IMG/VR virus record: IMGVR_UViG_3300046002_008519
Location: 3,254-67,253 of that record
Strand: one strand, 5' to 3'
DNA from: a virus
Length of the DNA: 64,000 nt
Position 1 is the first letter of the stretch, and the number at the start of each line of letters is the position of its first letter. Below, piece by piece: positions 26,615 through 51,389 of the stretch. The translations under genes and the position numbers were made by a program. Under the pieces are notes generated by a model. That model searched no databases, had not been told where the DNA came from, and worked only from the letters and a program-made list of their open reading frames with translations.

Positions 26615-27022
26615 ATGTCAAAAGGATTTATAAAACAATTACTTAGAGAAGCAATCATGACCAAAGACAAACAAGACGTTTTGGGTGTATCTGATTTCGT
26701 TAATTTTGCTAAGGATTTTTTAGGTATCGATGATGATGTAAAAGTTGAACTAGCGTTTGAAAAAACAGCAGACCTTAGAACAACCGCATATTATCACAAT
26801 AGTGACCATAGGGTTAAAGTCTACGTTAAAGATAGAGCTAAAATAGATATTATGCGTTCAATTGCTCACGAGCTTGTACATCACAAACAAAACATAGATG
26901 GAAGACTCACAGATACTGAAATAGATGGTGCTGATGGAAGTCCAATAGAAAATGAAGCCAATTCACTAGCTGGAATAATAATGAGAAAATGGGGTAGAAT
27001 TAATCCTGAGGATTATGTATAG
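26615..27022 (+). CDS. Zincin-like metallopeptidase with IKQLLRE leader
   Basis: SIAHELVHHKQ...ENEAN (HExxH...E). Confidence 0.8.
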   Translation: MSKGFIKQLLREAIMTKDKQDVLGVSDFVNFAKDFLGIDDDVKVELAFEKTADLRTTAYYHNSDHRVKVYVKDRAKIDIMRSIAHELVHHKQNIDGRLTDTEIDGADGSPIENEANSLAGIIMRKWGRINPEDYV

Positions 27023-27860
27023 TACTAAGACACTATTAAGAGAAGAAATCGCTTTAAACGATAAAAAAATGTTATTGTCAGAACATTCATTAATGATGAT
27101 TCAAAATTCATCGTATGTTAAAAATGTTTTAGGTATAAACGCACCTTTGAATGAAAGTTATTCTCTTTCAATTAGAAAACAAATTATTGAAGAACAAATT
27201 ATTATTGAAAATTTATTAGATTCAATTAATAACTATGTTGGTAATTTAGTTCAAAAAGGTAAAGAAAAAACTTTAAATTTTATTAGCTCAGTAAAAACAT
27301 TAAAAGAATTAGCTATTTTTTTTAAAGATATTTTATTAGATAGCGAATTAATGGATGAAGCAACACAAAACGTTAAAAATTCCTTAACAGAACAATTAAA
27401 TTATTTTAAAAATAAAATAAAAGCAATCTTAACCATGGTTAAAGTTAACGTTCAAGGTTTAACCGATAAACTAAATACTTTTTTAGAAAATATTTTAAAT
27501 TACGGTAATGGTTTAATAAATAAAAATGGTTGGGTTGCTTTTTTAACTATGTTAGGTTTAGCTGTTTTATTAACTTGGATTAACAAAAAATGGTTAGATT
27601 CTATTTCTGGTAATATTATTGATGGTCTTAAAAAAATTGATGGTGTAGTTAACCTTTTTAATAGTTTAAAAAATTTGATTAAAACTGCGGTATCAAATTT
27701 AGGCGTTGAAAAAATATTTGATTGGTTTAATGGTTTAGTTACCGAAGGTTCTGGTATTGGTTTAATTTTCACTATTTCTGAAATAATCATTATAATTTCA
27801 GAAATAGTGAAACCAACAATAAGAACAATAACAACAAAATTAAATTTACAAAAAAATTAA
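27015..27860 (+). CDS. Helical protein with hydrophobic segments and LLRE leader
   Basis: MYSTKTLLREE; WVAFLTMLGLAVLLTWI and IGLIFTISEIIIII segments. Confidence 0.75.
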   Translation: MYSTKTLLREEIALNDKKMLLSEHSLMMIQNSSYVKNVLGINAPLNESYSLSIRKQIIEEQIIIENLLDSINNYVGNLVQKGKEKTLNFISSVKTLKELAIFFKDILLDSELMDEATQNVKNSLTEQLNYFKNKIKAILTMVKVNVQGLTDKLNTFLENILNYGNGLINKNGWVAFLTMLGLAVLLTWINKKWLDSISGNIIDGLKKIDGVVNLFNSLKNLIKTAVSNLGVEKIFDWFNGLVTEGSGIGLIFTISEIIIIISEIVKPTIRTITTKLNLQKN

Positions 27861-27862
27861 CT

Positions 27863-29419
27863 ATGAAAAATACAATCAAAGGTGGTAAATCGGATAAACT
27901 ATCACTACATGACATAGCGGATAAATTTAAAGTAAGTGTTGATAAAATAAAATCTCAATTACAAAAAGGTGTTAAAATTGAAAGTGAGCACACTTCTGAT
28001 AAAGAAAAAGCTAGAGAAATAGCCATGGACCATATAACAGAATTTCCAGATTATTATGACAGACTTGAAAAAATGGAAAAAGGTGCGAATAAAAAATGGG
28101 AAAATGGTAAAGAAAAAACTAATGAAGGTATAAAAAAATCTATAGCCGCAGCTTCATTGGGTTTAAGTTTAATGGGTAACCCTCAAATAACCAAAGGTTC
28201 AAACATAACACCAATAAGTCAAACACAAACACAAAAAGTTTTAGCTAGAGTAACCATCAAAGGTTCTCAACCAATATCAAAACCAGATTTAGATTTAGTT
28301 CATGGTGTGTTAGGTTCAAATAGATTACAAGATGATTTTGCTAAAAGAGTTGAAGACGAATTAAAAAACCAAGTAAACAACGGAAATAAACCAGATGTAG
28401 CTAATATACAAGTAAGAACATATATACAAGGTGATAAAATTATAACCAAAGCGTCTTGTGATATTGTTCAATCTGTAGATGGAATAGCTTATACGCATTT
28501 TACAACTAGAGGTTCTATTGGTTCTAATTATATTCAAAGACATGATAATCAAATAAATGGGTTAATTGATAGGTTAGAAAATAATTATGGTGGTGTTGCT
28601 AAACAAGTTGATGATTCAATTGAAATTTCGTTTAAAATAAATGGTGATATAATATCTTATAAACAAAGTTTTTTTGTTTCTTCTGATGATAAAAATAAAA
28701 CAAATAATCAAAGCATACAACAAATTAACGGTACTGATATTAATAATTTAAGAGATAAATTAAACGCTGAAACAAAAGATATTTATATTGATATTAATTC
28801 TATTAGTGTAGATATGAAGAATTATAAAGTATCATATAAAACTGGTGGTGTTGGGATATATAAAATTTCTTTATTATTTGATGATTCTGGTAATTTAGAA
28901 GATAGATTAAAAAATATAAAAATTAAAAACCCAACGTTTAAAGAAATAAAAAGGGGTAGAATAAATAATTTGGATTGGGCTATAAGTGTAACACCTTATC
29001 AAGAAATAAAAACAAACAAAATGAACGAGAACAACAAAAAATTAATTAAAAAACTTCTTAGAGAAGAATTAGAAGAAGGAAAATATTGGAATATGGCTGG
29101 TACTTTGGGTATGGCAGCGGCAACTCTTGGCTCACCAAACGCTCAAGCAATGACAAAAGACCCGTTTAAAACTGAAAAAACTTATAAGGTTGGTGTAACC
29201 AAAAATGCCGATGGTACATATACATCAATAGCTAGAACAGATGGACCAACTAAAGAAATAGCTAAAGACTTGGCGATTAGTAAAGCTAAGACTCAAATAG
29301 TCTCAGCTTTAAACCTTGAAACGCCAGAATTTGAATTTGATGTGGTTGATATAAAATACGAAAAAGGTAGAAGTAATGTTATTTGTATTGTGCAAATAAT
29401 TGCTAAAGTAGTAAAATAA
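27863..29419 (+). CDS. Modular protein: DUF5661-like N-terminus plus two modules starting with signal-peptide-like segments
   Basis: GVKIESEHT...AREIAMDHITEFPDYYDRL; internal IKKLLREELEE. Confidence 0.75.
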   Translation: MKNTIKGGKSDKLSLHDIADKFKVSVDKIKSQLQKGVKIESEHTSDKEKAREIAMDHITEFPDYYDRLEKMEKGANKKWENGKEKTNEGIKKSIAAASLGLSLMGNPQITKGSNITPISQTQTQKVLARVTIKGSQPISKPDLDLVHGVLGSNRLQDDFAKRVEDELKNQVNNGNKPDVANIQVRTYIQGDKIITKASCDIVQSVDGIAYTHFTTRGSIGSNYIQRHDNQINGLIDRLENNYGGVAKQVDDSIEISFKINGDIISYKQSFFVSSDDKNKTNNQSIQQINGTDINNLRDKLNAETKDIYIDINSISVDMKNYKVSYKTGGVGIYKISLLFDDSGNLEDRLKNIKIKNPTFKEIKRGRINNLDWAISVTPYQEIKTNKMNENNKKLIKKLLREELEEGKYWNMAGTLGMAAATLGSPNAQAMTKDPFKTEKTYKVGVTKNADGTYTSIARTDGPTKEIAKDLAISKAKTQIVSALNLETPEFEFDVVDIKYEKGRSNVICIVQIIAKVVK

Positions 29420-29420
29420 T

Positions 29421-29445
29421 AAAAGGGGCGTTAAACCCCTTTTTT
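29421..29445. terminator. Bidirectional terminator between convergent genes
   Basis: AAAAGGGG-CGTTAAA-CCCCTTTTTTT. Confidence 0.7.
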
Positions 29446-29856
29446 ATTACCTATATATTCGTGACTATAACATATTCGTTTATTGTCAGCAAAATGATTG
29501 TTATATGTTTTTTCGTGTTTAACATCAGTTCTTAACTTTTTGTTCTTGCTAGTTGGTTTCCATAACACTGATTTTTCCCTATATTTACCCATGCGCGGGT
29601 GTGCAGTTCTTGAAAAATATCTATGACCTTCATTTAAGTGTATTTCCGCTATCATATTTGAAAACCTAACACCTATACCCATTCCTTGAAAATCTGGCAA
29701 CACAACGGTCCTATGACCTCTCCACGCATTTTTAACAGCACCATTTGGCATAGTGATAGCTGCACCAAAAGCAACTACAACACCATCCCATATTCCAATA
29801 TAAAACCTAGCGGCTTTATTTACTTTAGCATCTAAATAATGATGGTTCCCAAACAT
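29431..29856 (-). CDS. GNAT-family acetyltransferase (possibly Mom-like); probably the C-terminal part of a frameshift fusion
   Basis: HHYL, RTVVLPDFQGMGIG acetyl-CoA-binding motif A, TAHP. Confidence 0.8.
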   Translation of the reverse strand: MFGNHHYLDAKVNKAARFYIGIWDGVVVAFGAAITMPNGAVKNAWRGHRTVVLPDFQGMGIGVRFSNMIAEIHLNEGHRYFSRTAHPRMGKYREKSVLWKPTSKNKKLRTDVKHEKTYNNHFADNKRICYSHEYIGNKKGV

Positions 29857-30521
29857 TCTCCAACTATCATGGTTTGTGCGATATATGTCAAGTTTGATTT
29901 CTGGTCGGACAAAAAAAAACCGTCGATAAGCTCACCACTATCTGTATCTATAACCCAATCAGGTTCTAACCAATCTAATATATCTCTATGACACGTGGAC
30001 AACACTACATTTTGAATGTCGTTGTTTTTTATATACCTAGATAAAGATACGCTAGCCGCTTTGGCCACGTTTCTATCAACAACACTGGTGTATTCATCGA
30101 TAACAACATTTGATTTAATTTTCCTAGCTAAATCAGCTCTGAATTTTTCACCGTTTGATAAAACATGATAAGGTTTGTACCATGAAGGTACAGAATTAAG
30201 ACCAACGGAGCTTAGTTTGTCCATTCCATCTTCAGGTGTTTCAAAATGTGATATGATTGATTTATTTGAATCCCATATAGGGTTTTCCTCAACACCAAAT
30301 TCTTTTAACATACTAGATTTTCCTGACCCACTTGAGCCAACTATTACACCTACCTTAAAATTTTTTGGTAACGATTCTGGAATTAACCATGGATAAAATT
30401 TTGAAGTACCATCAAACAAACAATCAAAAGCTATTTCACTAGCTGTAATATATTCGTCACGAAGAACACTAGAAGTAAGTGGTTCTTGACTCTTGGTTAA
30501 TTTCTCAATAACTTTTTGCAT
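29832..30521 (-). CDS. ABC-type ATPase (no membrane partner)
   Basis: GSSGSGKS, LSNGEKFR signature, VIDEYTSVVDR, STCH. Confidence 0.88.
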   Translation of the reverse strand: MQKVIEKLTKSQEPLTSSVLRDEYITASEIAFDCLFDGTSKFYPWLIPESLPKNFKVGVIVGSSGSGKSSMLKEFGVEENPIWDSNKSIISHFETPEDGMDKLSSVGLNSVPSWYKPYHVLSNGEKFRADLARKIKSNVVIDEYTSVVDRNVAKAASVSLSRYIKNNDIQNVVLSTCHRDILDWLEPDWVIDTDSGELIDGFFLSDQKSNLTYIAQTMIVGECLGTIII

Positions 30522-30619: not shown

Positions 30620-30823
30620 TTATTTACCTTCAGTAAGTCTACTTACTGCTCTTTCTAATCTAGCAATTTTACTCTCCATCAATTTATTTGATGAACTTAG
30701 TTTTTTAGCTTGTTCATTAATCCATTCTTGCTTTTTAACAGCAATAGCTTCATTAACAATATTGTCGATTAAATCAACAAGGTGAGTTTCTTTGATTTTA
30801 ACAGTTTTTTTAATGTTTGACAT
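30620..30823 (-). CDS. Small putative head protein
   Basis: VKIKETHLVDLIDNIVNE leader-like motif; ends LTEGK. Confidence 0.65.
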   Translation of the reverse strand: MSNIKKTVKIKETHLVDLIDNIVNEAIAVKKQEWINEQAKKLSSSNKLMESKIARLERAVSRLTEGK

Positions 30824-31713: not shown

Positions 31714-33108
31714 TTAACTAAAATTTGTTGTTGGTAACAACTCTTTTAGTTTGTTGTAATTTTTCTCCCCTATAGCGTCTTTATCGACAACTATACGATA
31801 TAACGACCCTCCGTTAGTTTTATCTAAATTAGAAATTTCATTCGGTATAGTTTCAATACTATTACCTTTGATATTTAAAAATTCTAATTTTTTTAATTTG
31901 CCAATTTCAATCGGTAAAGACGTAAGTTTATTATTGGCCAATACTAGCATACATAAATTACTCAATTCCCCAATAGATGGGTGTAGTTCTTTTAATTTTG
32001 CCCCAGTAATAATAATCTGGTCCAAGTGTTTAAATTTAGAAATGTTAGGTAACATTGGCACGTCACGGTCCATAAATTTAATAATCGGTGTATTCTCCTC
32101 CAACAATTCAAATAACGTTTCAGCAAAACCAAATTTTAATAAATAATCCAAATAAGGGTTTGATTTTATTGTTTTTTTCTGTTTAGCTAAAATTGTTAAT
32201 TCTTCTTTAAAGAAATTGGCAACCCCTTCACTCTCAGCGATAACATTTTCAAAAATGCTAACGTTTTGACCATTTTTTCTATCTTTTAATTGGTTAGTTT
32301 CGAAATGAATTTGAAAAATTTCATCAGACTCACCAGAAAAAAACTTATTGTTTATTATAACATATAGTTTAGAAATCTCACCATTTGGTCTTTTATGGTT
32401 TTCAGTATAACTTTTAAACATACCATTACCCTCTCTGGCGGTACACCAGTTAGCATATTTTGAAAACACCACTGAAGCTTCAGTCGTTAACGGAACGTAA
32501 ACGGTGAATTTTCTATCCTTAACAGGTATGTATGCTTTTCCTAAATCTGCAAATTTCATAATAGTTCTTTCAATTACACTAGGGTCTTTTTCAATGAACG
32601 GGTCAACCGCGTCAAATAATTGTGATAAAGACTTGTATTGGTTAATATCTGTTGGGTCGTTAACTCCTTTCAATGAGTAACTACCAACACATAAATCTTT
32701 AAATTTTTTCTTTCTTTTATTATCTTCAAAAATACCTAAATATGTTTCAGCTTGAGGTAAATCTTCTCCAACTAAACGAATTCCGTAAGCTTGTGATTTA
32801 ACATCTTTCATAAAACGAGAAAACATATTAAGCATCCATTGGACATATATTTTATTATTGGTAGGGTCAGCCGAAATCATCTCCGAAAAAACATCCATAC
32901 AAACACTAACTTTTTTTATAATACGCTCTTTTTCGTTTACCTTTGAAGACACTAAAGCTATTATGTTTTCTTCATAGTAAATAGTTTGAACTTCATACTT
33001 ATCTTGTACCAACCCAGAAATCTTTTTCTCAACTTCTTTAGAGGAACAATCAAAAACATCGAATGTTTCAGCCAAAAATACCAACCTATCTGTTAAACCT
33101 TTTTTCAT
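31714..33108 (-). CDS. PcfJ/GNAT-like (WCTA) domain fused to leucine-rich repeats
   Basis: PLTTEASVVFSKYANWCTA...MFKSY...LYVII...FQIHFETNQLKD; LPIEIGKLKKLEFLNIKGNSIETIP LRRs. Confidence 0.75.
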   Translation of the reverse strand: MKKGLTDRLVFLAETFDVFDCSSKEVEKKISGLVQDKYEVQTIYYEENIIALVSSKVNEKERIIKKVSVCMDVFSEMISADPTNNKIYVQWMLNMFSRFMKDVKSQAYGIRLVGEDLPQAETYLGIFEDNKRKKKFKDLCVGSYSLKGVNDPTDINQYKSLSQLFDAVDPFIEKDPSVIERTIMKFADLGKAYIPVKDRKFTVYVPLTTEASVVFSKYANWCTAREGNGMFKSYTENHKRPNGEISKLYVIINNKFFSGESDEIFQIHFETNQLKDRKNGQNVSIFENVIAESEGVANFFKEELTILAKQKKTIKSNPYLDYLLKFGFAETLFELLEENTPIIKFMDRDVPMLPNISKFKHLDQIIITGAKLKELHPSIGELSNLCMLVLANNKLTSLPIEIGKLKKLEFLNIKGNSIETIPNEISNLDKTNGGSLYRIVVDKDAIGEKNYNKLKELLPTTNFS

Positions 33109-33644: not shown

Positions 33645-33968
33645 TCAGTATAAATTTTTTATTTTTTCGTACAACCTTTTTAGCTCTGTGGAGGTGTCTT
33701 TTATTTCAAATATAACCTCAATACATACATCATTTGGGTTTGAATCGTCGGTTAATTTGTATTGGAGTTCTTTTAATTTAAGGGTATTTTGTATACTATT
33801 TTTTAATTCTAAAACTACTTGATTATAAGTTGCCCACGCTTCTTTTATTTTTGTTGAACCACTGATTAAGTTCTCGGTTAAAACTTCTTCGTATCTATGT
33901 TCTAAATACGTTTCAAATTCACCATAGTGTTCTCTTAAAACTTTTCGTATTTTAGGTTTTAGGTCCAT
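33645..33968 (-). CDS. Hypothetical protein with IRKVLRE leader
   Basis: MDLKPKIRKVLRE; LKELQYKLTDDSNPNDVCIEVI. Confidence 0.7.
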   Translation of the reverse strand: MDLKPKIRKVLREHYGEFETYLEHRYEEVLTENLISGSTKIKEAWATYNQVVLELKNSIQNTLKLKELQYKLTDDSNPNDVCIEVIFEIKDTSTELKRLYEKIKNLY

Positions 33969-36739: not shown

Positions 36740-36778
36740 GTTTTTAAGTGTGTTGGGATATTTATAATAAAAAAAAGT

Positions 36779-37936: not shown

Positions 37937-37938
37937 AT

Positions 37939-40648: not shown

Positions 40649-41881
40649 TTAAAATGGTAATTCTTCTGCGTATTGACTTATAATGTTTTCAGATATTTTA
40701 TTCGTTCTTAAGTAATTTTCATATTCGTAAAAATTATACTTATTGTTAAATGCTGTAATATAACTTTTAACAGTGTCATCTAACTCTTTTGGTGGTGTAC
40801 AATTTCTTAAACCTTTAAGTTGACCATAGTTTAATGTTTTCTTACTAGCATTGCTTCTGTTATTATAATCTACTCTATAATTAACTTCAAGTGTGTATCC
40901 ACTAACTTGGTAAATACCAGAATAACCGCTGGCGATTGAACTACCATAACCAGCAACACAATGGTCTTGTCTGTGACCTTCTTCAATAAGTTCGTGATTG
41001 GTTCTAAGCATATTGTATCCAGTAAACTGTTCGAAATCTTCAAATATTTTGTGAGGGTTTAATTGAATAATTGGTTCAAACTCAAGCATTATTTTTCTTA
41101 GCTCTTTGGACCAAGTATCATGTTCAAGTTTAAGTCTTTTATCAGACCATGAACAGTTTATCTTTCTATCCAATTTAATGGCCATTTCAATAGTGTCTCT
41201 AAATAAATGGTTTTGAAAATGGGTAATTTTCAAATTTTCAACATTTGTCAAAAATGGGCTAATTCTTTTCCAATCAAATTTTGAAATATAACCATTAGCA
41301 CCATAACCTTGATTATAAAGGTTATAGTCTTCAGTCAACACCTTTATAACAGATGTAGGAACTTTATACAAGTGTTTTAAAACTTTATCAGCGTTGAATA
41401 ATTTATAAGTTATAACAGACGATAACGAAATATTATGACAAAACTTATTCTCTTTTATGTTTCTAAGCCATGCAAACCTCTCTTGCAAGAAATCAAATGC
41501 AAAATTAAAATGATAACTAATATCAGTATACATTGCATGCTTAAGGCTAGTACCTATTTTAAAATATAATTTTTTGTTCTTGTAAATCAAAGACTTAACC
41601 TTTTTTTCCCTAGAATAAATTCGATTGGTTTTAGTCATACTAAATGTTCTTCTAAAACAGCAAATTTCAAAACTACCATCTGTTCTTTCAAAACAAACAT
41701 CTCGTTCAATATAACATGCTGGTCTGCTATTAAAAAACAACACACGAGCCTTGTAAGGGTCCTGTTTGTAAGCGTCTAACAACCATTCCAATTTATCCGA
41801 TTTGGTTTCTTTGAACAAAGTATATTGTTTTAACTCACCCTTTTCTTCTAGAACCTTTTCCTTGTTTATTTGTCGTCCCAT
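40649..41881 (-). CDS. PcfJ domain protein
   Basis: RDTIEMA...LKLEHD...ELIEEGHRQDHCVAGY...TLEV...QLKGLRN. Confidence 0.8.
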   Translation of the reverse strand: MGRQINKEKVLEEKGELKQYTLFKETKSDKLEWLLDAYKQDPYKARVLFFNSRPACYIERDVCFERTDGSFEICCFRRTFSMTKTNRIYSREKKVKSLIYKNKKLYFKIGTSLKHAMYTDISYHFNFAFDFLQERFAWLRNIKENKFCHNISLSSVITYKLFNADKVLKHLYKVPTSVIKVLTEDYNLYNQGYGANGYISKFDWKRISPFLTNVENLKITHFQNHLFRDTIEMAIKLDRKINCSWSDKRLKLEHDTWSKELRKIMLEFEPIIQLNPHKIFEDFEQFTGYNMLRTNHELIEEGHRQDHCVAGYGSSIASGYSGIYQVSGYTLEVNYRVDYNNRSNASKKTLNYGQLKGLRNCTPPKELDDTVKSYITAFNNKYNFYEYENYLRTNKISENIISQYAEELPF

Positions 41882-41969: not shown

Positions 41970-44159
41970 TTATATTCTATCCAAGATAAAATCTTTATCA
42001 TCTGGCATATACTTGTCAATTATTGGTTCCAAATACGGATACAACTCTTTTTTATATAAAAGACTTACCATATCATACTTCTCCAATTGTCTAAATACAG
42101 AATCAGGTAAGTATTGAATTACCTTCGGAACACTTCTCATCAAATCAATTATATAATTCATACCAATTTTATCATACAATTGACGTGCAAGAATTGGTTT
42201 ACTATGTATCATACTATATATTCTATATTCACCCATCTTTTCAATACGCTCATCAGGTATATATTTTAAGGCTTTTGGGTTTTTTACTATAATATCTTTT
42301 AAATCTAAATCAACAATATCGTTAATTTTATCACCTAAGTGTTTAAACAATGTTGGTTGATTTGTTAAAATAATAACAAGGTCATAAGAACTAGTGACAA
42401 ATCTTAACAATTCTGGTTTATAAATAAAAGCCTTGGCTTTAGTGTCATACATCAAAGTATATCTAAGTGGGTTATATTCTTCTTTAGAATTTATAACAAT
42501 GTATTTATCCCTAATCAACAAAGGAAGCAAATCACCATATTTTAATCTACCTAAAAGGTCTAATTTTTTTTCCTCTGATATATTATCTAGTATTATTTTA
42601 TAACCAGTAGAATCCTTTTCTAATACGTTGGCTAATTGCCATGTACCTAATTCGTCAAAACCTTCTGATTTAACCAAATATTGAGTCAATTCAGGGTAGT
42701 CGTAAACGAGCAATTGTACTTGATATTTGGTTAATTTATTTATGTTTTCTTTAACTTCAGGTGACTTAATAATACTAGGTTCAGCATAAATAGCCTGAAA
42801 TAATTCATGGTTATTACTTAAAACATATCTATCTATATTTATTTTAACGTTCGGTAATAATTTTTTTATCACCTGCAATTCATCAAATTCCAATTTATCT
42901 TGGTTAATACTACGACTATCATGAATTTCGGTCCCGTTGTTGTTTCCATCTATCCTTAACATAAAGTATTTTTTAAGCATATCTTCTGACATGTGCTTAT
43001 AAAAAGCTTCATCAATTTTTTTGTTGTTATCTATCTTTAACTTTATAATACGATTTATCTGAGTTGGTGATAACACGTCTTCATATAATGCTGTGTCGTA
43101 ATACTTGTAAACAAAATAACCAACTTCAATAAGACTATCCATCGTTTCTTTTCTAAGGCTTTTTAACTGGTCTAAATTAAAAGACATTTGATTGGCAGCT
43201 AAATCCCTAATAAAATCAGCTGGTGTTACTTGAGAACCGTTAACCACAAGCCCTTTTATGCTTCTATCAACCAAGTCTTGTAAATCATTCGCAATAAAAC
43301 GAGCTTTAACACTATCCAATAACTCAGAGTATTTACGCTCATCGTCAGTTATTTCTCTATATGTAAAATATCTCTCAAGACCTTTTAAATTAGGTAGTTG
43401 TTGCTCTATTTCATCCCATGGCATCGCATCACTTTTACCACCACTTCTTAAACCAGTGTTGGTTCTATCCGCAATGGCGTATCCATTATAACCACCATAG
43501 TTCATAATAACCAATTTTTGTTCGTCACCTTTGATATTCTTTTGCAAAACAAAATATGGTGTGGCACCATAGCTAAGTCTATATGTGTTGTAAAAATTTG
43601 AATCAGCTTTGGTAATACACCAAGATTCCCCTTTTCCATACATTACACACTTGGCTTTGGTGTTGGTATCCAAAATAATAACGTTATTATCTTCATAAAG
43701 AACATCTTCTTGATTGGGTTTTTCTATGCTCGTCCCGATACCTATTTCTTCATCTTTTACCCATCTATTGTTATTAACCAAATCCACAAGACCCTGTTCA
43801 ACTTTTTTCATTGAAAATGGTCTAGCTTTGTCACCCAACAAAACAATGTTGTTTATGTAAGCGTCTAAGTATTTCTTGGCCAACTCTCGGTTGTCAGGAA
43901 ATGAAGTGGTTTTAACCAAATCATCTAACACTCTATCATACCAATTGTTAAACACCTCATCAAATTGTTCTTTGCTTTTATATTGCATGATATCACCAAA
44001 AGATTGTTTAAACAAATAAGCAATTGCCAGTTTGTTTATCATATCATTTGAAGAATCGTTAAATCTTTTTGTTACTGGTTCGATAACACTTTTTCCGTAG
44101 AATTCGTTTACCAACGTTTCTCTAAGTAATTGTTTTACTATATTTTTCATCTTATACAT
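41970..44159 (-). CDS. Large protein with VKQLLRE leader, PcfJ/GNAT-like WCI domain and helical repeats
   Basis: MKNIVKQLLRETLVNE; KCVMYGKGESWCIT...YNTYR...YFV; C-terminal P..LKYIP-type repeats. Confidence 0.75.
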   Translation of the reverse strand: MYKMKNIVKQLLRETLVNEFYGKSVIEPVTKRFNDSSNDMINKLAIAYLFKQSFGDIMQYKSKEQFDEVFNNWYDRVLDDLVKTTSFPDNRELAKKYLDAYINNIVLLGDKARPFSMKKVEQGLVDLVNNNRWVKDEEIGIGTSIEKPNQEDVLYEDNNVIILDTNTKAKCVMYGKGESWCITKADSNFYNTYRLSYGATPYFVLQKNIKGDEQKLVIMNYGGYNGYAIADRTNTGLRSGGKSDAMPWDEIEQQLPNLKGLERYFTYREITDDERKYSELLDSVKARFIANDLQDLVDRSIKGLVVNGSQVTPADFIRDLAANQMSFNLDQLKSLRKETMDSLIEVGYFVYKYYDTALYEDVLSPTQINRIIKLKIDNNKKIDEAFYKHMSEDMLKKYFMLRIDGNNNGTEIHDSRSINQDKLEFDELQVIKKLLPNVKINIDRYVLSNNHELFQAIYAEPSIIKSPEVKENINKLTKYQVQLLVYDYPELTQYLVKSEGFDELGTWQLANVLEKDSTGYKIILDNISEEKKLDLLGRLKYGDLLPLLIRDKYIVINSKEEYNPLRYTLMYDTKAKAFIYKPELLRFVTSSYDLVIILTNQPTLFKHLGDKINDIVDLDLKDIIVKNPKALKYIPDERIEKMGEYRIYSMIHSKPILARQLYDKIGMNYIIDLMRSVPKVIQYLPDSVFRQLEKYDMVSLLYKKELYPYLEPIIDKYMPDDKDFILDRI

Positions 44160-46353
44160 TTCCTATTCCAAGCCATTTGCTTTTTATTTTATCATTTACC
44201 CACTCATGTCCACCACCAGTGATTTTAACCGCCCTATCAACAATCAATTGTCTAAAAGGTGCTTTACCCTCAGCCGACCAATAAGATTTGTTGGTTTCTT
44301 TAAAAAATGGTTTAACTTCATTCTTACTAGCAACCTTACATCCACTAGCACCACAAATTACATACACATATTCCGTACCAGTTGGTATAATAGGAAAATA
44401 AAATCCATTCTTGCCACTCTCAAGCATATCATATCCTTGTACTGGTTTGTAATTCCCCTTCTTAGGACCAACAACATAATCAGGGTTGATTCGCTTCATC
44501 GCTCTTTCATATGTATCTTTCCAACCAAATATAAACCTAGTATGCTTGAATATTTTATCATACATTGGGTTTGGAACCTTTTTGCCAAATTTGTCTACAA
44601 CAGTCTTGTTCATATAATCATTCATAGATGAAATATAATATGCAGTACCAGTTGTCATTCGCTTAGGGTCTTGGTCCAAAAATTTACGTATGTCGTTGGA
44701 ATATCTTTCTTCAGTTACAAAATTCTCTCTAAGCATATTCTTAACTCTTACCTTGCTCTCGTTGATTTCTTCAATTCTAATCTCACCAAGCTTGTCTTGC
44801 AATAACTCGTTGAAATATTCATTGTTAATATCAGGTGAATAATAATTGTCGTTGAACCTAAAGTCAGGTTTGTCAATCCACTCACCCATCATCTCATCAA
44901 ACATACAACTCATATCATCGTTGCATCTATCAGAAATCTCTTCATAAACATCTTCTTCCAAATCATCTATATACTTACCAACGTTAACACGCAACACAAC
45001 ACCAGTATCATCCATTTTTTCAACAACACCTAATTCTTCTAGAGCCTCTTCTAACTTCTTGTATATATCATCAGCATAAGTATCAGACTCAGCATCGTTG
45101 ACAGCTCTTTGTATAGCATGAATAATCTCTTGGTCCTCATCATATTCTTCAATCATATCTTCCAACGATAAATCTTCATCAATCTCAACACCATTCTTGG
45201 CAGCCATCGCTTGCAATATCTGACGAATTTCATTTTCGCTATTACTGTCAGCATTATATTCCAAAGCACCCTTCCAATCCGCATCATAATTGTCCCACAA
45301 ATCCCACGTGTCACCAGCCAATATTATTTCAAACAACCCAATGCTTCTTCCTTCACCATAAACATTAGCCCTTTCTTTACGAACCGTATAATCACCATCA
45401 ATATATCTATCAACCATATCAGGTGAAATCTCAATAGACACATACTCCTCAGGCAACTTGTCAATAAGACCCATAGCAACAAGCTTCTTCTTAAGGCTTC
45501 TCTTGTTAAATAACTCAGGACGCTTGGCAAATATCTCCCTAATAACATCATCACTAAAATCAGTCAACTTAAAATCACTAGAACTCTCATATTCACTACC
45601 AAACCCGTTGATAAAATATCCATCACCCCTCTTCAAAAATAACAATGGGTAAATATACTCATGATATACAGCTTCAGGCTTGCTATTCTTTCCACCCTTC
45701 ATCTGATACACTATGCCATTGGTGCCAATAGCAGCAGTCAACACAGATTTGTTAAGCTTGTATTTGTCATTAAGCGGAATGACTTGTCTAAGAGAATAAA
45801 TTCTACCAGCGCCACTAGTGCCACAATGTCCCATACGGTCACATTCCTCTTTTGAACTACCAGTTTCCAAATCAGCCCAATAAAACCCATTGCCGCTGGC
45901 ATCCCTAAAGTCAAGTATAATAGGATTTTCTTCAACATAGTTGATGTCACCAGAACCAACCTCCAATTCATCATGCCATTGTTTAGAAGCATCAAACAAT
46001 TCTTGGAAACTTAATTCTTTGTTGGAACCCAAGTTTCCGTTAAGACCAACACGAACCCAGTCCATAATAGAAGTAATGGTTTGTCTCTCATTGTTAACTC
46101 TTCTATCATCTGCCATTTTTTGAATTGTAACTTTTCTTAATTCAGCTGGTGATAAATCTTGTATCATACGACCATAATATGTCATATAATAATCAATAAT
46201 CTTGTTACCTATCCAAATACTCAACGGACCACAAAGCCTATCAAGTATCTCAGCTGACTCCTCATCAAATCCAATCTTGTTAATAAGGATATCTTTTTTT
46301 GAAGCCTCATGAATAAGCCCCTCTCTAAGTATATTGCGTATGTTTGTGTTCAT
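44152..46353 (-). CDS. Large modular protein with IRNILRE leader and PcfJ-like domain
   Basis: EECDRMGHCG...IYSLR...QMKGGKNSKP; internal VKNMLRE leader copy before a C-terminal module. Confidence 0.78.
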   Translation of the reverse strand: MNTNIRNILREGLIHEASKKDILINKIGFDEESAEILDRLCGPLSIWIGNKIIDYYMTYYGRMIQDLSPAELRKVTIQKMADDRRVNNERQTITSIMDWVRVGLNGNLGSNKELSFQELFDASKQWHDELEVGSGDINYVEENPIILDFRDASGNGFYWADLETGSSKEECDRMGHCGTSGAGRIYSLRQVIPLNDKYKLNKSVLTAAIGTNGIVYQMKGGKNSKPEAVYHEYIYPLLFLKRGDGYFINGFGSEYESSSDFKLTDFSDDVIREIFAKRPELFNKRSLKKKLVAMGLIDKLPEEYVSIEISPDMVDRYIDGDYTVRKERANVYGEGRSIGLFEIILAGDTWDLWDNYDADWKGALEYNADSNSENEIRQILQAMAAKNGVEIDEDLSLEDMIEEYDEDQEIIHAIQRAVNDAESDTYADDIYKKLEEALEELGVVEKMDDTGVVLRVNVGKYIDDLEEDVYEEISDRCNDDMSCMFDEMMGEWIDKPDFRFNDNYYSPDINNEYFNELLQDKLGEIRIEEINESKVRVKNMLRENFVTEERYSNDIRKFLDQDPKRMTTGTAYYISSMNDYMNKTVVDKFGKKVPNPMYDKIFKHTRFIFGWKDTYERAMKRINPDYVVGPKKGNYKPVQGYDMLESGKNGFYFPIIPTGTEYVYVICGASGCKVASKNEVKPFFKETNKSYWSAEGKAPFRQLIVDRAVKITGGGHEWVNDKIKSKWLGIGNV

Positions 46354-48203
46354 TTTAACTTTTTTTTATTTAACTTCTAAGTATTTTTCGTATATTTTTT
46401 CTGCTTTCATCAATAACACCAACCAAACGTTTAATATTGTCAGTTGGGTTTTTGATATAAAAATAGGCGTTTTCATTATTTTTAACTGCTGCCATTTGAA
46501 CAACTTCTGATGGGTCCTCAATAAATTGAATAGCATACCCGTTTTGATTAACAGCCTCAAGTTTAGCATTTTCAGTAGGGTTTTTTATGAAATTAATAAC
46601 ATCATAGTTATAATAACCACCTATTTGGATTGCCGCTATCTGAATAGCTTCAGATGGGTTGTTGATAAATTGTATCGCTTTATATTCACTTTTTATTGCA
46701 GCCAACTGAAGATTTTCAGACGGGTTTTCAAAGTGCTTAATCATAAGACCATTACTAATCACAGAAGATAATTTAAATTCTTCAGATGAATTTTTCATAT
46801 ATCTAATTGACATCGGATTTATTAAAATAGCATGTTTTTGCATTTCATAACTTAACTCACCCATAAATTGAATCGATGTAGGACTATTATGAATCAACCA
46901 CCCAATAGAGCTCTCAGTTTTACCTAAAACAGAAAAAATATAATCAACAAAACGCTGGTTTGTATCAACGTTATTCATAATAGCCCTAAAAATATTTTTG
47001 TCTATGTTTTGTCCAAAAAAATCTAACAACCATATAAAAAACTCAGTGTTGTCACCAGAAGGTATTTGATTAACCAATTTAACAATATTGTCATATTCAT
47101 CCCAATCTTTACCGTTGGCGGTAAATATCAATTTTGCAATGTCTAATCCATGACCACTTTTGACAGCATGATTAACAATATCTCTATATGGATATTCAGA
47201 ATTATCTTTTTGTTGACTTATAAAATGTTTAATCTTGTCAAAATTATTTTTAAAATAATCGTAATCATATTTTATCAAAGCCGTCAAACCACCCATAGAT
47301 TTCATCAAGTCTTCTTTTCTGTAGTTACCAAACTCAGCTTTTCTAAAATCATCCATCGCAACATGCCCACCATTATCCTTGAACCATTTAACCATGTCAT
47401 TATCATCATAAAAAGTATAAACGTTAGGTGTAAGCGTTTTTAACTCTTCTATAATTTCATTGGTGGCTTCTTCCTTTTCTCCCTTTTCTTCATCAGCATA
47501 ATAATCCATCGCTCTATCTGGCAACCAAGCCAAAGATAAAACCCTTACATTTTTTACCAACAATTCATTCCACCCATTGTCAAAACTTGAACTAAAAACC
47601 ATTTTAATCAAATTGTCTTTAATCTCATCATGATATTTATCAAACAACCCAAACATGTGGGTCATATATGTTCTAACATCACTAGGGTTATCGTTAAATT
47701 TAAAAGTACTAAAATAATTAACCAAATCATCATATAACCTATTGGATAATAATTTAGCAGAAATCCATCTCCTGTTAACCGATTGGTCAAGAGTAGACAT
47801 AATGTCATTAGAACCCATGATGTCCATAACACCACCTATCTTAAGAACAATACCACCTTGGGTTTGTATACCCCTAGCGCTTCTTATCCCACCCTCACCA
47901 AAATACTTGAACGCAGATATGGAATTTCGCTTGCCAATAATCTTTTTAATCTCAAATACTTTTTTCAAATCAGTAACGTGAAAAGCTTCCACAACCCTAG
48001 GTTCATCAAACATTCTTTTGACAATGCTAGAAGTCAAAGGAATTTCACCATTTCTTAATTTTTTATCTTTGTTGCTCACCCACATGACCTCATCCAACAA
48101 CTCTTCACTAATCAAATCAATATATGATTCAAAAAGAATATCTTTCTTTGAAGCCTCAAGAATAAGCCCCTCTCTAAGTATATTGCGTATGCTTGTATTC
48201 ATT
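46288..48203. repeat. ~65-bp near-identical direct repeat encoding the leader MNT(N/S)IRNILREGLI(H/L)EASKKDIL
   Basis: ~46288-46354 versus ~48137-48203. Confidence 0.85.
46370..48202 (-). CDS. Large protein with IRNILRE leader and C-terminal NPSE..QLAA repeats
   Basis: Start re-called at 48202 (TAATG overlap); DUF4116-like repeats. Confidence 0.75.
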   Translation of the reverse strand: MNTSIRNILREGLILEASKKDILFESYIDLISEELLDEVMWVSNKDKKLRNGEIPLTSSIVKRMFDEPRVVEAFHVTDLKKVFEIKKIIGKRNSISAFKYFGEGGIRSARGIQTQGGIVLKIGGVMDIMGSNDIMSTLDQSVNRRWISAKLLSNRLYDDLVNYFSTFKFNDNPSDVRTYMTHMFGLFDKYHDEIKDNLIKMVFSSSFDNGWNELLVKNVRVLSLAWLPDRAMDYYADEEKGEKEEATNEIIEELKTLTPNVYTFYDDNDMVKWFKDNGGHVAMDDFRKAEFGNYRKEDLMKSMGGLTALIKYDYDYFKNNFDKIKHFISQQKDNSEYPYRDIVNHAVKSGHGLDIAKLIFTANGKDWDEYDNIVKLVNQIPSGDNTEFFIWLLDFFGQNIDKNIFRAIMNNVDTNQRFVDYIFSVLGKTESSIGWLIHNSPTSIQFMGELSYEMQKHAILINPMSIRYMKNSSEEFKLSSVISNGLMIKHFENPSENLQLAAIKSEYKAIQFINNPSEAIQIAAIQIGGYYNYDVINFIKNPTENAKLEAVNQNGYAIQFIEDPSEVVQMAAVKNNENAYFYIKNPTDNIKRLVGVIDESRKNIRKILRS

Positions 48204-49008
48204 ATCTTAAATTTTTTTGGTACCAATCTTTATCTTCTTGTGATAAAGACCAATCTTTACCACTTTCTATTTTATTTTTAAAATATTTCATCTTCTGTTC
48301 ATCAGTAGCATAGGATAATTCTAGTTTTGTTAAATAACTACCACTATCTATTACACTATTTATAACTTTATCCATTAATTCACGAGACAACATTTTAAAT
48401 TCTAAATTAGTTAACAAATGTTTGTTTTTATTAACAATGTTTTCTAGATATTTGTTTATATATTCTTTAGGTAAATAGTTTAAAACATATTCTTCAACTT
48501 TATCATCATCACTATATAAAAAGTTTTTTCCGATACTTTTTAATGCTTGTCTAATTGCGTAGTCTTTTTTTAACTCATCTGACAAAATAGAAAATTCATA
48601 TTCATGTAAATTTCTACCGTCTGGTCTGTCAATAATCATTTTTAAATAAGATATCTTATTATTCTCTGGTAATGAATCAAATACAGATTTGGTTAACCAA
48701 TGTCCTTTGGATACTCGATTATAAACATAAAACCTAGCAACACTAGGCTGAACCGTATCCAATTCCCATTTTTCGACAGGTTCCCAACCTTGATTTATTT
48801 TTTTTAGAATCAACACACCCAATTCATTTTTTTGAGCCCCATCCATTAAATCAAATTCATATTTTTCAATATCATAATTGTGTTTTGAAGCAATAATTCG
48901 TTTACGTATATATGTTTTTTTATCAGCACCAGATAACTGTGTGATTTGATATTCTGGCAATTTTAATCCAGTGTCAACATATTTTCTTATAAGGTCTTTA
49001 TTGTTCAT
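48202..49008 (-). CDS. Helical-repeat protein, paralog 3 of tandem array
   Basis: MNNKDLIRKYVDTGLKLPEYQITQLSGADKKTYIRKR. Confidence 0.75.
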   Translation of the reverse strand: MNNKDLIRKYVDTGLKLPEYQITQLSGADKKTYIRKRIIASKHNYDIEKYEFDLMDGAQKNELGVLILKKINQGWEPVEKWELDTVQPSVARFYVYNRVSKGHWLTKSVFDSLPENNKISYLKMIIDRPDGRNLHEYEFSILSDELKKDYAIRQALKSIGKNFLYSDDDKVEEYVLNYLPKEYINKYLENIVNKNKHLLTNLEFKMLSRELMDKVINSVIDSGSYLTKLELSYATDEQKMKYFKNKIESGKDWSLSQEDKDWYQKNLR

Positions 49009-49435
49009 TTTTTATTTTTTTGTAATATTCTAATTCCTCAGGTGATAATTTATCAAGAAACCATTGCCAATTAAAATCTTTAATTGCTAAGGCTCTTAAA
49101 TATTTTAGCTTAGATTTGTTATTAAAATACCAATACAAATCAGGGTTTATAATATAACCTTTTTCTATCGTTCTATCTAAATAAAAATCTTTAATTTCAT
49201 CAGAAACTTTAGTAAATAAAATTGAATTAAGATTATGTTTTTCTATAAATGCTTTCTGTTGCTCAATATCCATAGAATTAAGTTCATAACCTTCTAAATT
49301 ATCTTCATTGTTTTGAGCAATAAAACGCTTACGCAAATAAGTCTTCTTATCAGCACCAGATAACTGATTAAACTGATATTCTGGTATACCTACACCAGTA
49401 TCCACATATTGTTTTATAAGGTCTTTATGATTCAT
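48998..49435 (-). CDS. Helical-repeat protein, paralog 2 of tandem array
   Basis: MNHKDLIKQYVDTGVGIPEYQFNQLSGADKKTYLRKR. Confidence 0.75.
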   Translation of the reverse strand: MNHKDLIKQYVDTGVGIPEYQFNQLSGADKKTYLRKRFIAQNNEDNLEGYELNSMDIEQQKAFIEKHNLNSILFTKVSDEIKDFYLDRTIEKGYIINPDLYWYFNNKSKLKYLRALAIKDFNWQWFLDKLSPEELEYYKKIKNEQ

Positions 49436-50039
49436 CTTTAATTAAATTGTGCTTTTTAATAATGTTTAAAAAATCTAAATATATTTCATCCCTGTAGTTT
49501 GAAACCTTCCATCGAATACTATCATGGTTTAATATATTTTTCCCATGATATTTTATTAAATTTTTAATATAATATATCTTTAATTCATCAATTAAATCTT
49601 TGAAAATATCAACAATTGATTTTTTGTCTAAAGAAAGACTAGCGTTCCATTTTAAATATCTAAGCTTATCAGTAAATGGTAATTCAAAAAATTGGTTTCT
49701 AGGTAAACTAACCCCTTTATTAATTACCATATCCAAATATTTTGATTTAAATTCGTCACGCAATTCTCTTAAAAATTCATCCAAATCTCTATTACCCGAT
49801 AAATTATAAAAATTAATTTTTTTTGTAAATAATTCATCATAATACTTATCCATATCTACAGAATCCATCAAATCAATCTCATAAGGAGATAATTCAAATA
49901 CATTTGAAGATTGTTTATTAGCAATTAAACGTTTTCTCAAATATGTTTTCTTATCAGAACCAGATAACTGCATGACTTGATATTTGGGTAACTTTAACCC
50001 AGAATCCACATATTGTTTTATAAGGTCTTTATGGTTCAT
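49425..50039 (-). CDS. Helical-repeat protein, paralog 1 of tandem array
   Basis: MNHKDLIKQYVDSGLKLPKYQVMQLSGSDKKTYLRKR. Confidence 0.75.
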   Translation of the reverse strand: MNHKDLIKQYVDSGLKLPKYQVMQLSGSDKKTYLRKRLIANKQSSNVFELSPYEIDLMDSVDMDKYYDELFTKKINFYNLSGNRDLDEFLRELRDEFKSKYLDMVINKGVSLPRNQFFELPFTDKLRYLKWNASLSLDKKSIVDIFKDLIDELKIYYIKNLIKYHGKNILNHDSIRWKVSNYRDEIYLDFLNIIKKHNLIKDES

Positions 50040-51007
50040 TATTTCTGCATCAAATAATCAAATTGGTCGTTGGTCAACAAATGACCCCTTCCAATATACT
50101 TAGACTTATAATCAATAGGTAATTTGATAAACCATTCAAGATTATTATTTTCTTGACCCAACAACTCATCCTCTAGTTTTTCTTGGTCAGTCTTAGGTTT
50201 GTTAACCAACATCTTATCAACAGGAACTCCCATAGACCCCAAATACTCAACGTAGCTATCAGCATCATCACCATAAGGCTCAGCTATAGTACCAGTTGTG
50301 TTATTAGCATCAGTCAACTCAACACCATACTGCGTATTGTCAAACACAACCATATGCAAAGGGTCATCCAAATTAATACTACCATCAGCTTCAGTGGCAA
50401 AATGATTTTTATCAACAATATAATAAAATGTTGATGTTTTGGAATCACGATAAGATTGGAACATGTTTGACGGCCCAGGGAGACCAATACAAAACGAATA
50501 ACCCCTACCCGTCAAACCACCACTACCATAAGAAATACACTTACCAATACTGTCACCAGCATAAATGTCAATACCATTCCCACTCCATATAGGCTTCTTT
50601 TCAGCCTTGAAATCAGCGGCAACACTAGATTTTATTTCACTAGACCTATTCAACTCATTCGTCTTGCCATGAATAAACTCAGAAAACTTTATAAAGTCAT
50701 TGTATGTGTTGTCACCCAAAACAAGACCATCCCTTGTCAACTGTATGGTTTTTACTTTGCCCAATTTTTCCAACTCGTTGTACTCATTTACAACACTAGT
50801 TATGTTGCGAACGTTTTTGTAACCGCTGGCATATAAATAAGCCATGATTGGAAGATTTTTTTGGTTGTTGCTGACATCAGCAGCCTTGAATTCAGACATA
50901 ACACCCTCAGCATTTTCCGCTCCAGCCTTTTTTAATATATTCAATCCTTGCGCTTCAGTAGCCTTGGATTCCAATAACCTTTGATAAATTTCAAATATTT
51001 TAATCAT
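50039..51007 (-). CDS. PcfJ/GNAT-like (FCI) domain protein with RLLE leader
   Basis: Start re-called at 51007 (MIKIFEIYQRLLE); KCISYG...YSFCIG...NMFQSYR...TFYYIVD...TDANN. Confidence 0.75.
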   Translation of the reverse strand: MIKIFEIYQRLLESKATEAQGLNILKKAGAENAEGVMSEFKAADVSNNQKNLPIMAYLYASGYKNVRNITSVVNEYNELEKLGKVKTIQLTRDGLVLGDNTYNDFIKFSEFIHGKTNELNRSSEIKSSVAADFKAEKKPIWSGNGIDIYAGDSIGKCISYGSGGLTGRGYSFCIGLPGPSNMFQSYRDSKTSTFYYIVDKNHFATEADGSINLDDPLHMVVFDNTQYGVELTDANNTTGTIAEPYGDDADSYVEYLGSMGVPVDKMLVNKPKTDQEKLEDELLGQENNNLEWFIKLPIDYKSKYIGRGHLLTNDQFDYLMQK

Positions 51008-51056
51008 TCTTTTATATTTTATGTATTTATAAATATAATTTAAAACCATAAAAAAT

Positions 51057-51389
51057 ATGAAAAATACCATAAAACAACTCCTAAGAGAAAATTTTGTCTT
51101 TGATGATAAAGACTTCGCAAAAAACAGACTCGCTGGCGCCGAAAAAATAATAGCAAACGCCAAAGAAAAAGGTGGCGACGCAATGCTTACATATAACCAC
51201 TTCAACGTTAAACCAGCTTACTACAAAAAAGCCATCAACGGAAAATTTGACATAGAACAAGCCACAAAAGAATATAACGAAACATTCAAGAAAATATCTC
51301 TAGATATGACCCAAACAGAATTCCAAAAAGAAGTGGGTAGACTTGAAGTGCTCGGAGAACTAATTATCAAAAACAAAAACCAAAAATAA
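51057..51389 (+). CDS. Small protein with IKQLLRE leader
   Basis: MKNTIKQLLRENF. Confidence 0.75.
   Translation: MKNTIKQLLRENFVFDDKDFAKNRLAGAEKIIANAKEKGGDAMLTYNHFNVKPAYYKKAINGKFDIEQATKEYNETFKKISLDMTQTEFQKEVGRLEVLGELIIKNKNQK

Follow-up and report, generated by a model that had tools for sequence, protein, structure and literature searches.

The capsid targeting sequence (CTS) of bacteriophage T4 has been known since the 1990s, and with this precedent the concept of a short peptide that directs proteins into a phage head is not new. Encapsulin cargo-loading peptides, which are short and portable, address unrelated enzymes into a shell of the HK97 fold; these are usually C-terminal, remain uncleaved and bind the shell protein. 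The present analysis concerns a peptide, the leader, that begins ten genes of the IMG/VR virus record IMGVR_UViG_3300046002_008519 (67,253 bp, GC ~30%, CheckV completeness 20%). The window, i.e. the whole stretch of DNA analysed, is 64,000 nucleotides (nt) long and comprises bases 3254–67253 of this record. By analogy with T4, the leader is interpreted as a T4-style head-loading and cleavage tag, i.e. a CTS, on a variable set of cargo proteins, and a probability of about 0.6 is assigned to this interpretation. A search by title of the literature naming 'capsid targeting sequence', which did not cover subscription journals, found no work on environmental T4-like phages.

The T4 CTS reads MKTYQEFIAE (PMC8442874). 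According to the account in PMC9026906, the first 10 residues of T4 internal protein IPIII suffice for loading, residues 4 and 7 function in targeting and residues 8 and 10 in processing, and Asp at position 10 stops cutting, but not loading. The T4 protein Alt loses a 7-residue propeptide, and the CTS is suggested in the same account to be a general device by which T4-like phages load varied proteins. Prohead proteases are described as cutting C-terminal to a Glu that follows a short motif, an example in T4 being 'LIE-9' (PMC9026906, PMC5694885). In phage SPN3US, gp53/gp54 start MANFVKSKLARESVE and have two candidate sites, AXE-12 and SXE-15, and the phiKZ homologue gp93 is cut at SLE-13, as reported in PMC5694885. 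Phage polyvalent proteins are predicted to be packaged in the capsid, and their ADP-ribosyltransferases (ARTs) are placed in a clade other than that of Alt (Iyer et al., 2017, PMC5512222).

The leader, its internal copies and its cargo

The gene starts in question have the form M-x(2-5)-[IV]-[KR]-x-[LIVM]-L-R-E. Eight strong examples had been named in an earlier note made from the sequence of the window, and all eight are present at the starts that it gave; two more are found just upstream of the window. Lengths are in amino acids (aa), and scores in bits are from the position matrix described below.

26615–26650, plus strand: leader MSKGFIKQLLRE of gene 26615-27022 (a minimal HELVHH zincin of 135 aa; 23.7 bits)
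27015–27044, plus strand: leader MYSTKTLLRE of gene 27015-27860 (281 aa, hydrophobic in two segments towards its C-terminal end; 18.6 bits)
33930–33968, minus strand: leader MDLKPKIRKVLRE of gene 33645-33968 (107 aa; 18.2 bits)
36779–36811, plus strand: leader MKSLIKQLLRE of gene 36779-37936 (385 aa; 29.7 bits)
44118–44159, minus strand: leader M(YKM)KNIVKQLLRE (starts 44150/44159) of gene 41970-44159 (729 aa; 16.1 bits)
46321–46353, minus strand: leader MNTNIRNILRE of gene 44152-46353 (733 aa; 16.4 bits)
48170–48202, minus strand: leader MNTSIRNILRE of gene 46370-48202 (610 aa, its C-terminal part with repeats that match PHROG 17056/5925; 17.0 bits)
51057–51089, plus strand: leader MKNTIKQLLRE of gene 51057-51389 (110 aa; 15.9 bits)
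Genome positions 1141 and 2300, minus strand, just upstream of the window: leaders MKTFIKKLLRE and MKNIIKKLLRE

All ten leaders end L-R-E at residues 10–14. The layout consists of hydrophobic residues at positions 4–5 and 8–9 and Glu at position 11, with the end ...L-L-R-E, and the sequence reads as an amphipathic helix whose two faces consist of F/I/L/L/L and of K/K/R/E. With three to four charged residues in 11, the leader lacks the uncharged hydrophobic stretch of at least 10 residues behind a basic start that marks Sec/Tat or lipoprotein signals, and signal-peptide-like N-termini found elsewhere in the contig look different, e.g. MKKLLLVLSLFVCTISFGQ.

The motif [ILVM]LRE begins in the first 16 residues of 10 of the 94 greedy-called genes of the contig and has four matches elsewhere, two of which are internal copies (binomial P 3e-9). 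Shuffled controls had been named beforehand as a check on this enrichment; 1000 residue shuffles gave a mean of 0.12 and a maximum of 2, and the N-terminal enrichment stands. A position matrix, trained on 16 leaders from three related records with this contig excluded, separates the ten N-termini cleanly from the rest: these score 15.9–29.7 bits and the next-best N-terminus 8.1. Among 18,390 internal windows a single one scores high, at residue 401 of gene 27863-29419 (28.9 bits), and the next scores 7.7. Three variants, at 30823, 34312 and 51007, had also been counted as members, but they drop out, as they lie outside the 22 best N-termini and display only a hydrophobic-x-Glu at residues 9–13. 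The last of these, a possible degenerate leader of gene 50039-51007 (MIKIFEIYQRLLE, 50969–51007, minus strand), was rejected because of this rank. The next-best N-termini (8.1, 6.6 and 2.6 bits) are those of three tandem paralogues of 268, 145 and 204 aa at 48202–50039 on the minus strand; all start MN(H/N)KDLI(K/R)(Q/K)YVD(T/S)G and end in Asp, not Glu; an Asp at this place in T4 still permits loading but stops cutting (PMC9026906).

Internal copies of the leader had been proposed to precede extra modules at ~29042 and ~44730, and both are present, the second as a weaker copy.

29021–29065, plus strand: internal leader MNENNKKLIKKLLRE, residues 387–401 of the protein of gene 27863-29419 (28.9 bits)
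44725–44766, minus strand: internal joint INE-SKVRVKNMLRE (...EINESKVRVKNMLRE), residues 530–543 with Glu at 543, in gene 44152-46353 (below 4.3 bits)

The first copy joins a part consisting of DUF5661 plus a middle region to a 117-aa C-terminal module. The long form of this protein (518 aa) is a fusion, because the orthologue, a DUF5661 gene, in the syntenic 362-kb relative G001 is only 102 aa. The second copy has a further hydrophobic-x-Glu site before it. Internal leaders are preceded by x-N-E-[SN], which reads EINE-S and KMNE-N here and KLNE-N, TNE-S and KNE-S in relatives, and the same layout is found in IMG/VR loci L043, L088 and L104 and in the related record G003. Where x is Leu or Ile, x-N-E constitutes a second site of the same type, and thus cutting at both sites would excise the leader. 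Eight of the ten leader proteins lack an internal leader or joint, and in the window two modules are joined only in genes 27863-29419 and 44152-46353.

Cargo in the contig includes a small zinc peptidase and an ADP-ribosyltransferase, together with a protein that has hydrophobic segments and several large family-less ones. For the 385-aa protein of gene 36779-37936, no family was found with Pfam or PHROGs, Atlas giving leads only (≤0.87), and the same three sources gave no family, or Atlas leads only, for the remaining cargo. The ART is a leader protein encoded just upstream of the window, and its match to PF18760 (ART-PolyVal, 1.7e-10, above the cut-off) begins at residue 17. In its AlphaFold model (mean confidence, pLDDT, 75.8) the N-terminus is a helix of low confidence; residues 1–20 average ~60, with residues 11–15 below 50, and the domain starts at ~20, with a value of 95 from residue 21. 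The best fold match is 9k3a_B, a capsid-internal pre-ejectosome chain of cyanophage A4 (E 9e-5), followed by an anti-CRISPR protein (6kyf) and by ARTs of the PARP type; the TM-scores of 0.25–0.31 are low. The zincin of gene 26615-27022 is modelled with a pLDDT of 85.2, residues 1–9 being below 50 and the confident domain starting at ~13, and it has weak fold matches (E 2.5e-3 and worse) to minigluzincins, IrrE/PprI, SPRTN/Wss1 and the ArdC peptidase. The leader is thus outside the confidently predicted fold in both models.

The leader-bearing proteins had been described as unrelated, and this is borne out. All-against-all BLASTP of 14 leader-stripped proteins yields two weak pairs only, 44159 with 51070 (4e-5) and 46353 with 48202 (0.008); gene 41970-44159 shares one domain with gene 50039-51007 (BLASTP 4e-5). 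These pairs bear on an alternative in which the leader is the conserved first helix of a hidden paralogous family, without a common role, since the 46353 and 48202 proteins are alike over their first 50–85 residues and the 44159 and 51070 proteins are alike also beyond the leader. The remaining leader proteins are dissimilar by BLASTP, however, and the cargo folds differ, with ART and zincin modelled here and NUDIX, GNAT and nucleotidyltransferase in relatives. The ART domain also occurs leaderless inside giant proteins (~54 of the best 150 matches are ≥900 aa), and the leader's position outside both modelled folds does not suit a shared first helix. A hidden family is very improbable on this evidence.

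Certain enzymes do not carry the leader. Thymidylate synthase, ClpC and thioredoxin (ThyA, ClpC, TrxA) had been listed as lacking it, and their N-termini, when read, agree with this. PcfJ- and GNAT-like enzymes had been listed as tagged cargo, which does not hold: neither the PcfJ gene of the window (40649-41881) nor its GNAT gene (29431-29856) has a leader. Leader proteins were also considered as PcfJ-like and this was rejected, the best E-value of the PcfJ-domain gene 40649-41881 against leader proteins in BLASTP being 0.19; the link consists of an Atlas lead only, to a PcfJ cluster at 0.90 with 33% of members. The GNAT open reading frame and one for an ABC-type ATPase (29431–30521, minus strand), both leaderless, match two halves of PHROG 11143 and overlap at 29832–29856 in the -1 frame, with a T_TTG_GGA heptamer at 29847–29853 on the minus strand. 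The thymidylate synthase gene (20262–21716, minus strand; 484 aa) matches Pfam in two separate stretches and so has an insert of approximately 200 aa; its G001 counterpart is broken into pieces that flank a GIY-YIG-like open reading frame. Another leaderless protein (31714–33108, minus strand; 464 aa) has C-terminal leucine-rich repeats (LRR_8, 6.6e-8).

The head module and proposed processing

The left third of the window, on the minus strand, is a T4-type head and packaging module.

8246–10012, minus strand: large terminase
5832–7934, minus strand: portal, T4 gp20 type; PF07230 (Portal_T4) 1.2e-74, 252 bits
3893–5788, minus strand: four small head-module genes in the gap between portal and protease
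5000–5788, minus strand: small head gene with leader-like N-terminus MQNFGKIKNAFSEILAE-G
4391–4732, minus strand: small head gene with leader-like N-terminus MAENKDSWADYSKLVLKE-LERLNE (...YSKLVLKE-LERLNE)
3096–3821, minus strand: prohead core protease, T4 gp21 type; PF03420 (Peptidase_S77) 7.2e-25, PHROG 207 1.8e-39
1728–2975, minus strand: scaffold-like protein, 415 aa, start MADKKSILEE, long Asp/Glu-rich middle, 14 [LI]-x-E sites
1–1689, minus strand: gp23-type major capsid protein of 609 aa, whose gene starts 140 bases ahead of the first base of the window; matched by phmmer to mature capsid chains of T4 type at 7e-29

The protease scores 88.1 bits to PF03420, for which the curated cut-off is 27, and aligns to PDB 5JBL, the T4 prohead core protease gp21 (1.7e-15). 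Its catalytic His and Ser, in ELDHP and GVSSRG, are retained; the aligned positions of the 5JBL chain read Ala. The 415-aa protein has no family match in Pfam and PHROG profile searches and is termed scaffold-like by position and composition only; its gene lies between the protease and capsid genes, which is also the place of gene 22 in T4. Proteins of the head module start with leader-like N-termini that have a hydrophobic-x-Glu, i.e. EILAE, LVLKE and SILEE (MADKKSILEE), and those of the two small head genes 5000–5788 and 4391–4732 are kept in G001, G003 and the further relative G004; the N-terminus MADKKSILEE is likewise conserved in relatives. In the capsid protein, VKE-44, LYE-51 and LTE-60 are situated 8–24 residues before the segment that aligns to mature-chain residues 24–77. 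In T4, a 65-residue propeptide of the gp23-type capsid protein is described as removed at the corresponding place (PMC9026906).

The end of the leader, judged from the peptide itself, fits the hydrophobic-x-Glu site rule of the Peptidase_S77 family. The prohead protease site is also worded L/I-x-E. By analogy with T4 and with phiKZ/SPN3US, the leader would let late proteins, once synthesised, dock to the scaffolding core while the prohead assembles, and the gp21-type serine protease would then remove it by a cut after the Glu of L-x-E. In fused modules the leader would lie between the two, flanked by a second site (I/L/M-N-E, then S/N), and maturation at these joints would release both modules and discard the leader. 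The cargo would stay in the head with the DNA, and we infer, again from the T4 analogy, that tagged cargo is probably injected into the host cell at infection. The N-terminal leader itself was said often to be followed by a second site. A [LIVFM]-x-E is found within 6 residues in 8 of 26 leaders (background 11%, P 0.006), so that an excess exists, but it is modest and 'often' is too strong. The [LI]-x-E sequence has an observed/expected ratio of 1.01 in cargo vs. 1.39 in other proteins, a weak hint of avoidance.

The similarities to T4 are several. As with the CTS of IPI, IPII, IPIII and Alt, a peptide of ~10 residues is common to the N-termini of unrelated proteins, and both peptides display an MK start, two hydrophobic positions three to four residues apart and a hydrophobic-x-Glu end. 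A gp21-type protease, gp20-type portal and gp23-type capsid protein are found in the same phage; one leader cargo is an ADP-ribosyltransferase, as is Alt, and cargo genes vary between close relatives. Differences are also evident. The consensus is MKxxIK[KQ]LLRE, vs. MKTYQEFIAE in T4; cargo is mostly acidic and includes proteins of 600–730 aa, and the leader functions also as an internal module joint. The ART cargo falls in the polyvalent-protein clade (PF18760), not the Alt/VIP2 clade, as these are drawn in PMC5512222. Bacteroidota-style signal peptides, and a Flavobacterium phage as nearest cultured relative, make a host in the Bacteroidota probable, and the leader system is known here from sequence alone.

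The propeptides of SPN3US/phiKZ, as far as they are presented in PMC5694885, share with the leader a basic amphipathic start and one or two x-x-Glu sites at residues 11–16 (compare MKNFIKKLLRE-SLxxE). These phages differ in following an A/S-x-E rule and in having a diverged protease and no T4-type scaffold set; moreover, their shared N-terminus belongs to paralogues, whereas the leader is on unrelated proteins. With polyvalent proteins there are in common an ART-PolyVal effector, zincin modules, a link to late or packaging genes and predicted delivery with DNA. Polyvalent proteins have 2–15 domains per polypeptide, but most leader cargo consists of one module per gene. The suggestion that the leader system is a 'distributed' counterpart of polyvalent proteins gains some substance from the ART-PolyVal cargo (PF18760) and its parallel to T4 Alt.

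The gene order next to the leader genes raises the question of whether the leader is a tag for another destination, with no head loading: it could be a membrane-binding amphipathic helix, or be read by the phage ClpC-type unfoldase for unfolding, timed degradation or hand-over. A gene for a ClpC-like double AAA+ protein (24047–26551, plus strand; PHROG 4871, 2.5e-253) is directly upstream of leader genes, and this neighbourhood recurs in G004 and in G001, whose ClpC gene is split into several pieces. The cleanly amphipathic helix of the peptide and the distance of some leader genes from the head module also favour another destination. ClpC, however, is separated from the first leader gene by a terminator-like hairpin and by a promoter-like motif distinct from its own, and the invariant terminal Glu with the fixed 11-residue spacing from Met suits a protease site and not a membrane helix. 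Internal copies flanked by a second hydrophobic-x-Glu site, an N-terminal pattern in common with head-module proteins and the resemblance to the SPN3US/phiKZ propeptides whose processing was determined experimentally (as given in PMC5694885) also weigh against it. Another destination is considered unlikely.

Gene shuffling and the upstream motif

Two blocks of the window, 36779–39359 and 41970–51389, are absent from G001. The first contains a leader gene, a metallophosphatase and a family-2 glycosyltransferase, and the second contains the three tandem paralogues, four leader genes and gene 50039-51007 with its possible degenerate leader. After ClpC, the leader is on a zinc-ribbon protein in G001 and on the zincin in this phage. 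Leader genes are thus accessory and, from these gene orders, are shuffled as units. A remnant of the leader is found at a gene end.

46370–46414, minus strand: gene 46370-48202 ends in a leader remnant, IDESRKNIRKILRS-stop, and the next leader gene follows immediately

The remnant DNA (…ATACGAAAAATACTTAGAAGTTAA) resembles the leader DNA of gene 44152-46353. The remnant suggests that modules were once joined here or that leader DNA has recombined.

A promoter-like motif, TATTTATA, is found in the sense orientation ≤45 nt upstream of 13 of the 94 genes, and its reverse complement upstream of three. Five of the ten leader genes are among these 13, as are thioredoxin, the protease gene and two DUF285 genes; before gene 50039-51007 the motif is 28 nt upstream.

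26592–26599, plus strand: TATTTATA, 23 nt before gene 26615-27022
36759–36766, plus strand: TATTTATA
51024–51031, plus strand: TATTTATA
3841–3848, minus strand: TATTTATA, before the protease gene

According to the earlier note, most leader genes have the motif, which it gave as ATATTTAT and called late-type. This is correct for half: five of the ten have TATTTATA upstream, but the other five closely follow other genes and are without it, and thioredoxin, a leaderless enzyme, has it. A shared timing of leader genes with head genes is plausible from the motif before both. Gene 17504-19663 (minus strand) encodes a 719-aa protein with six DUF285 repeats (1.2e-88); a small gene at 16962–17204 (minus strand) has the N-terminus M[AP]K[IN]NDVYS in common with it, and TATTTATA is upstream of both.

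Constant leader and swapped cargo in relatives would also be expected if the leader were a DNA or RNA feature, i.e. a mobile 5′ cassette, made up of the promoter, the start region and the first codons, which recombination would spread and which would aid expression, the peptide having no function. The promoter-like motif is 11–33 nt from the ATG of five leader genes, there is the remnant at a gene end, and the second Leu is encoded by CTT in 7 of 10 contig leaders vs. 17.8% genome usage. The CTT over-use implies that part of the similarity within the contig is recent common DNA and not independent selection. In IMG/VR, on the other hand, the same peptide is written in varied synonymous codons (at one Leu position, CTT 20, TTA 18, CTA 8), which points to selection on the peptide across phages. 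Also contrary to a cassette are the five leader genes inside operons without the motif, the internal in-frame copies that keep the peptide far from start codons, and related leaders with other residues (LIKE, IIKE, FLRE) in a Flavobacterium phage and a cyanophage. A functionless cassette therefore appears quite improbable. Recombination at the leader is known for T4 internal-protein loci, and so it is compatible with a head-loading tag.

Distribution among phages and significance

No DNA-level match to any phage-collection record was obtained by megablast with 12 kb of the record. Among cultured phages, the portal is closest to those of Microcystis phage Mel-JY01 (37%) and of Flavobacterium phage vB_FspM_immuto (35%). 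An odd 95-base tRNA-like gene, with a two-letter anticodon left undetermined, is called by ARAGORN at 56446–56540 on the minus strand.

In IMG/VR the loose DNA pattern K-[KQ]-L-[LF]-R-E has at least 121 matches in at least 120 stretches. Among the 121 matches listed, 45 are N-terminal, 30 internal, 40 in short frames and 6 ambiguous, and 22 of the 41 distinct N-terminal cases listed have exactly 11 residues from Met to Glu. The strict pattern M-K-x-x-I-K-[KQ]-L-L-R-E is found in 86 stretches and at least 66 distinct proteins (chance expectation, estimated by hand, <1). A Pfam scan of 39 of the 63 strict-pattern proteins of at least 60 aa, near-duplicates left out, identified three ART-PolyVal domains (E 5.4e-7 or better, one below the Pfam cut-off) and a weak fourth, two NUDIX, one PolyA_pol-head nucleotidyltransferase, one GNAT and two weak DUF matches; 28 proteins are family-less. 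A separate family, in L012, L015, L040, L061, L070, L072, L091, L112, L119, L120 and other loci, starts MS-K-[KQ]-L-L-R-E-F-x-x-L-C...C..DLLTE and has only two residues before the common core.

A word-based homologue search with the ART protein detected two close relatives only. An exhaustive search detected 643 matches; among the best 150 of these, ~54 are proteins of 900–4583 aa with an embedded domain, and two short proteins start with the leader (MKGFIKQLLRE, MRKLIKQLLKE).

Peptidase_S77 is encoded by 14 of 23 other leader-bearing records, including both that are ≥90% complete; the nine without it are all 16–55% complete. A 24th record from the loose scan, G002, was not counted, as it has only an unrelated C-terminal match; its best S77 score is 26 bits, or 28.6 with neighbouring pieces. 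CheckV estimates imply that the tested leader-bearing records are pieces or wholes of genomes of ~300–370 kb.

The complete relative G001 has 10 leaders by regular expression among 508 called genes, and one RLRE variant. Six of the 11 leader genes are within 30 kb of the protease gene, and in G003 four to five leaders are 4–7 kb from it. The tagged arsenal had been proposed to exceed T4's few internal proteins in scale; with ~10–11 leaders in a complete genome, the scale is not far above that of T4. The protein of gene 27015-27860 has orthologues that begin MNNTRTLLRE in G001 and …TRQLLKE in G004, and the G001 orthologue of gene 33645-33968 starts MDLKKKIRKVLRE.

More distant dialects of the leader are also found. 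Flavobacterium phage immuto, which encodes an S77 protease (6.9e-36), has leaders ending LIKE, IIKE or LLRE on approximately six proteins; among these are MKKSELVKLIKE, MKKSQLRQIIKE, MKLDLLKKLIKE and MRLLELLRE, the last on a protein similar to that of gene 51057-51389. A zincin homologue in Synechococcus phage B23 starts MNYKQFLRE, and a very degenerate leader DNA pattern run over this cyanophage gave fewer forward matches than the backwards control.

A number of observations weigh against the leader as a head-loading tag. Its likeness to the T4 CTS is one of layout only, over 11 vs. 10 residues, and is too short for homology statistics; the leader is basic, whereas the T4 CTS is acidic, and the cargo is mostly acidic (median pI 5.15), whereas T4 internal proteins are basic. 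The second site follows only 8 of the 26 leaders, five of the ~11 leader genes of G001 are >80 kb from the head module, and the fold matches of both modelled cargos are weak. The CTT preference given above also counts here. Finally, TATTTATA is not over-represented in the contig (24 vs. ~27 expected) and precedes thioredoxin, and thus leader genes are not established as late. The capsid-loading interpretation put forward in the earlier note is supported in part, by the hydrophobic-x-Glu end of the leader, the unrelated folds that carry it here and in relatives, the S77, portal and capsid machinery and the ART cargo; the PcfJ/GNAT enzymes, the three variants and the larger scale fall away.

A broader proposal, decidedly tentative, is that the leader constitutes a sequence-readable address code that lists all head-packaged, injected proteins in a T4-like lineage with genomes of ~300–370 kb, and is also an excisable joint. 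Single tagged effectors, two-module proteins and relic joints would then be stages of one shuffling process that links T4-style cargo with giant polyvalent proteins. At lower odds, the conserved neighbouring ClpC-type unfoldase may take part in the loading or unfolding of cargo.

If the leader is a head-loading tag, the proteins injected by a large, uncultured group of aquatic giant phages would be readable from sequence. The 66 tagged IMG/VR proteins, most of them family-less, would form a candidate pool of host-takeover and counter-defence functions. Phage heads other than those of the E. coli/T4 system could then also be loaded with foreign proteins, through a targeting peptide distinct from the T4 one.

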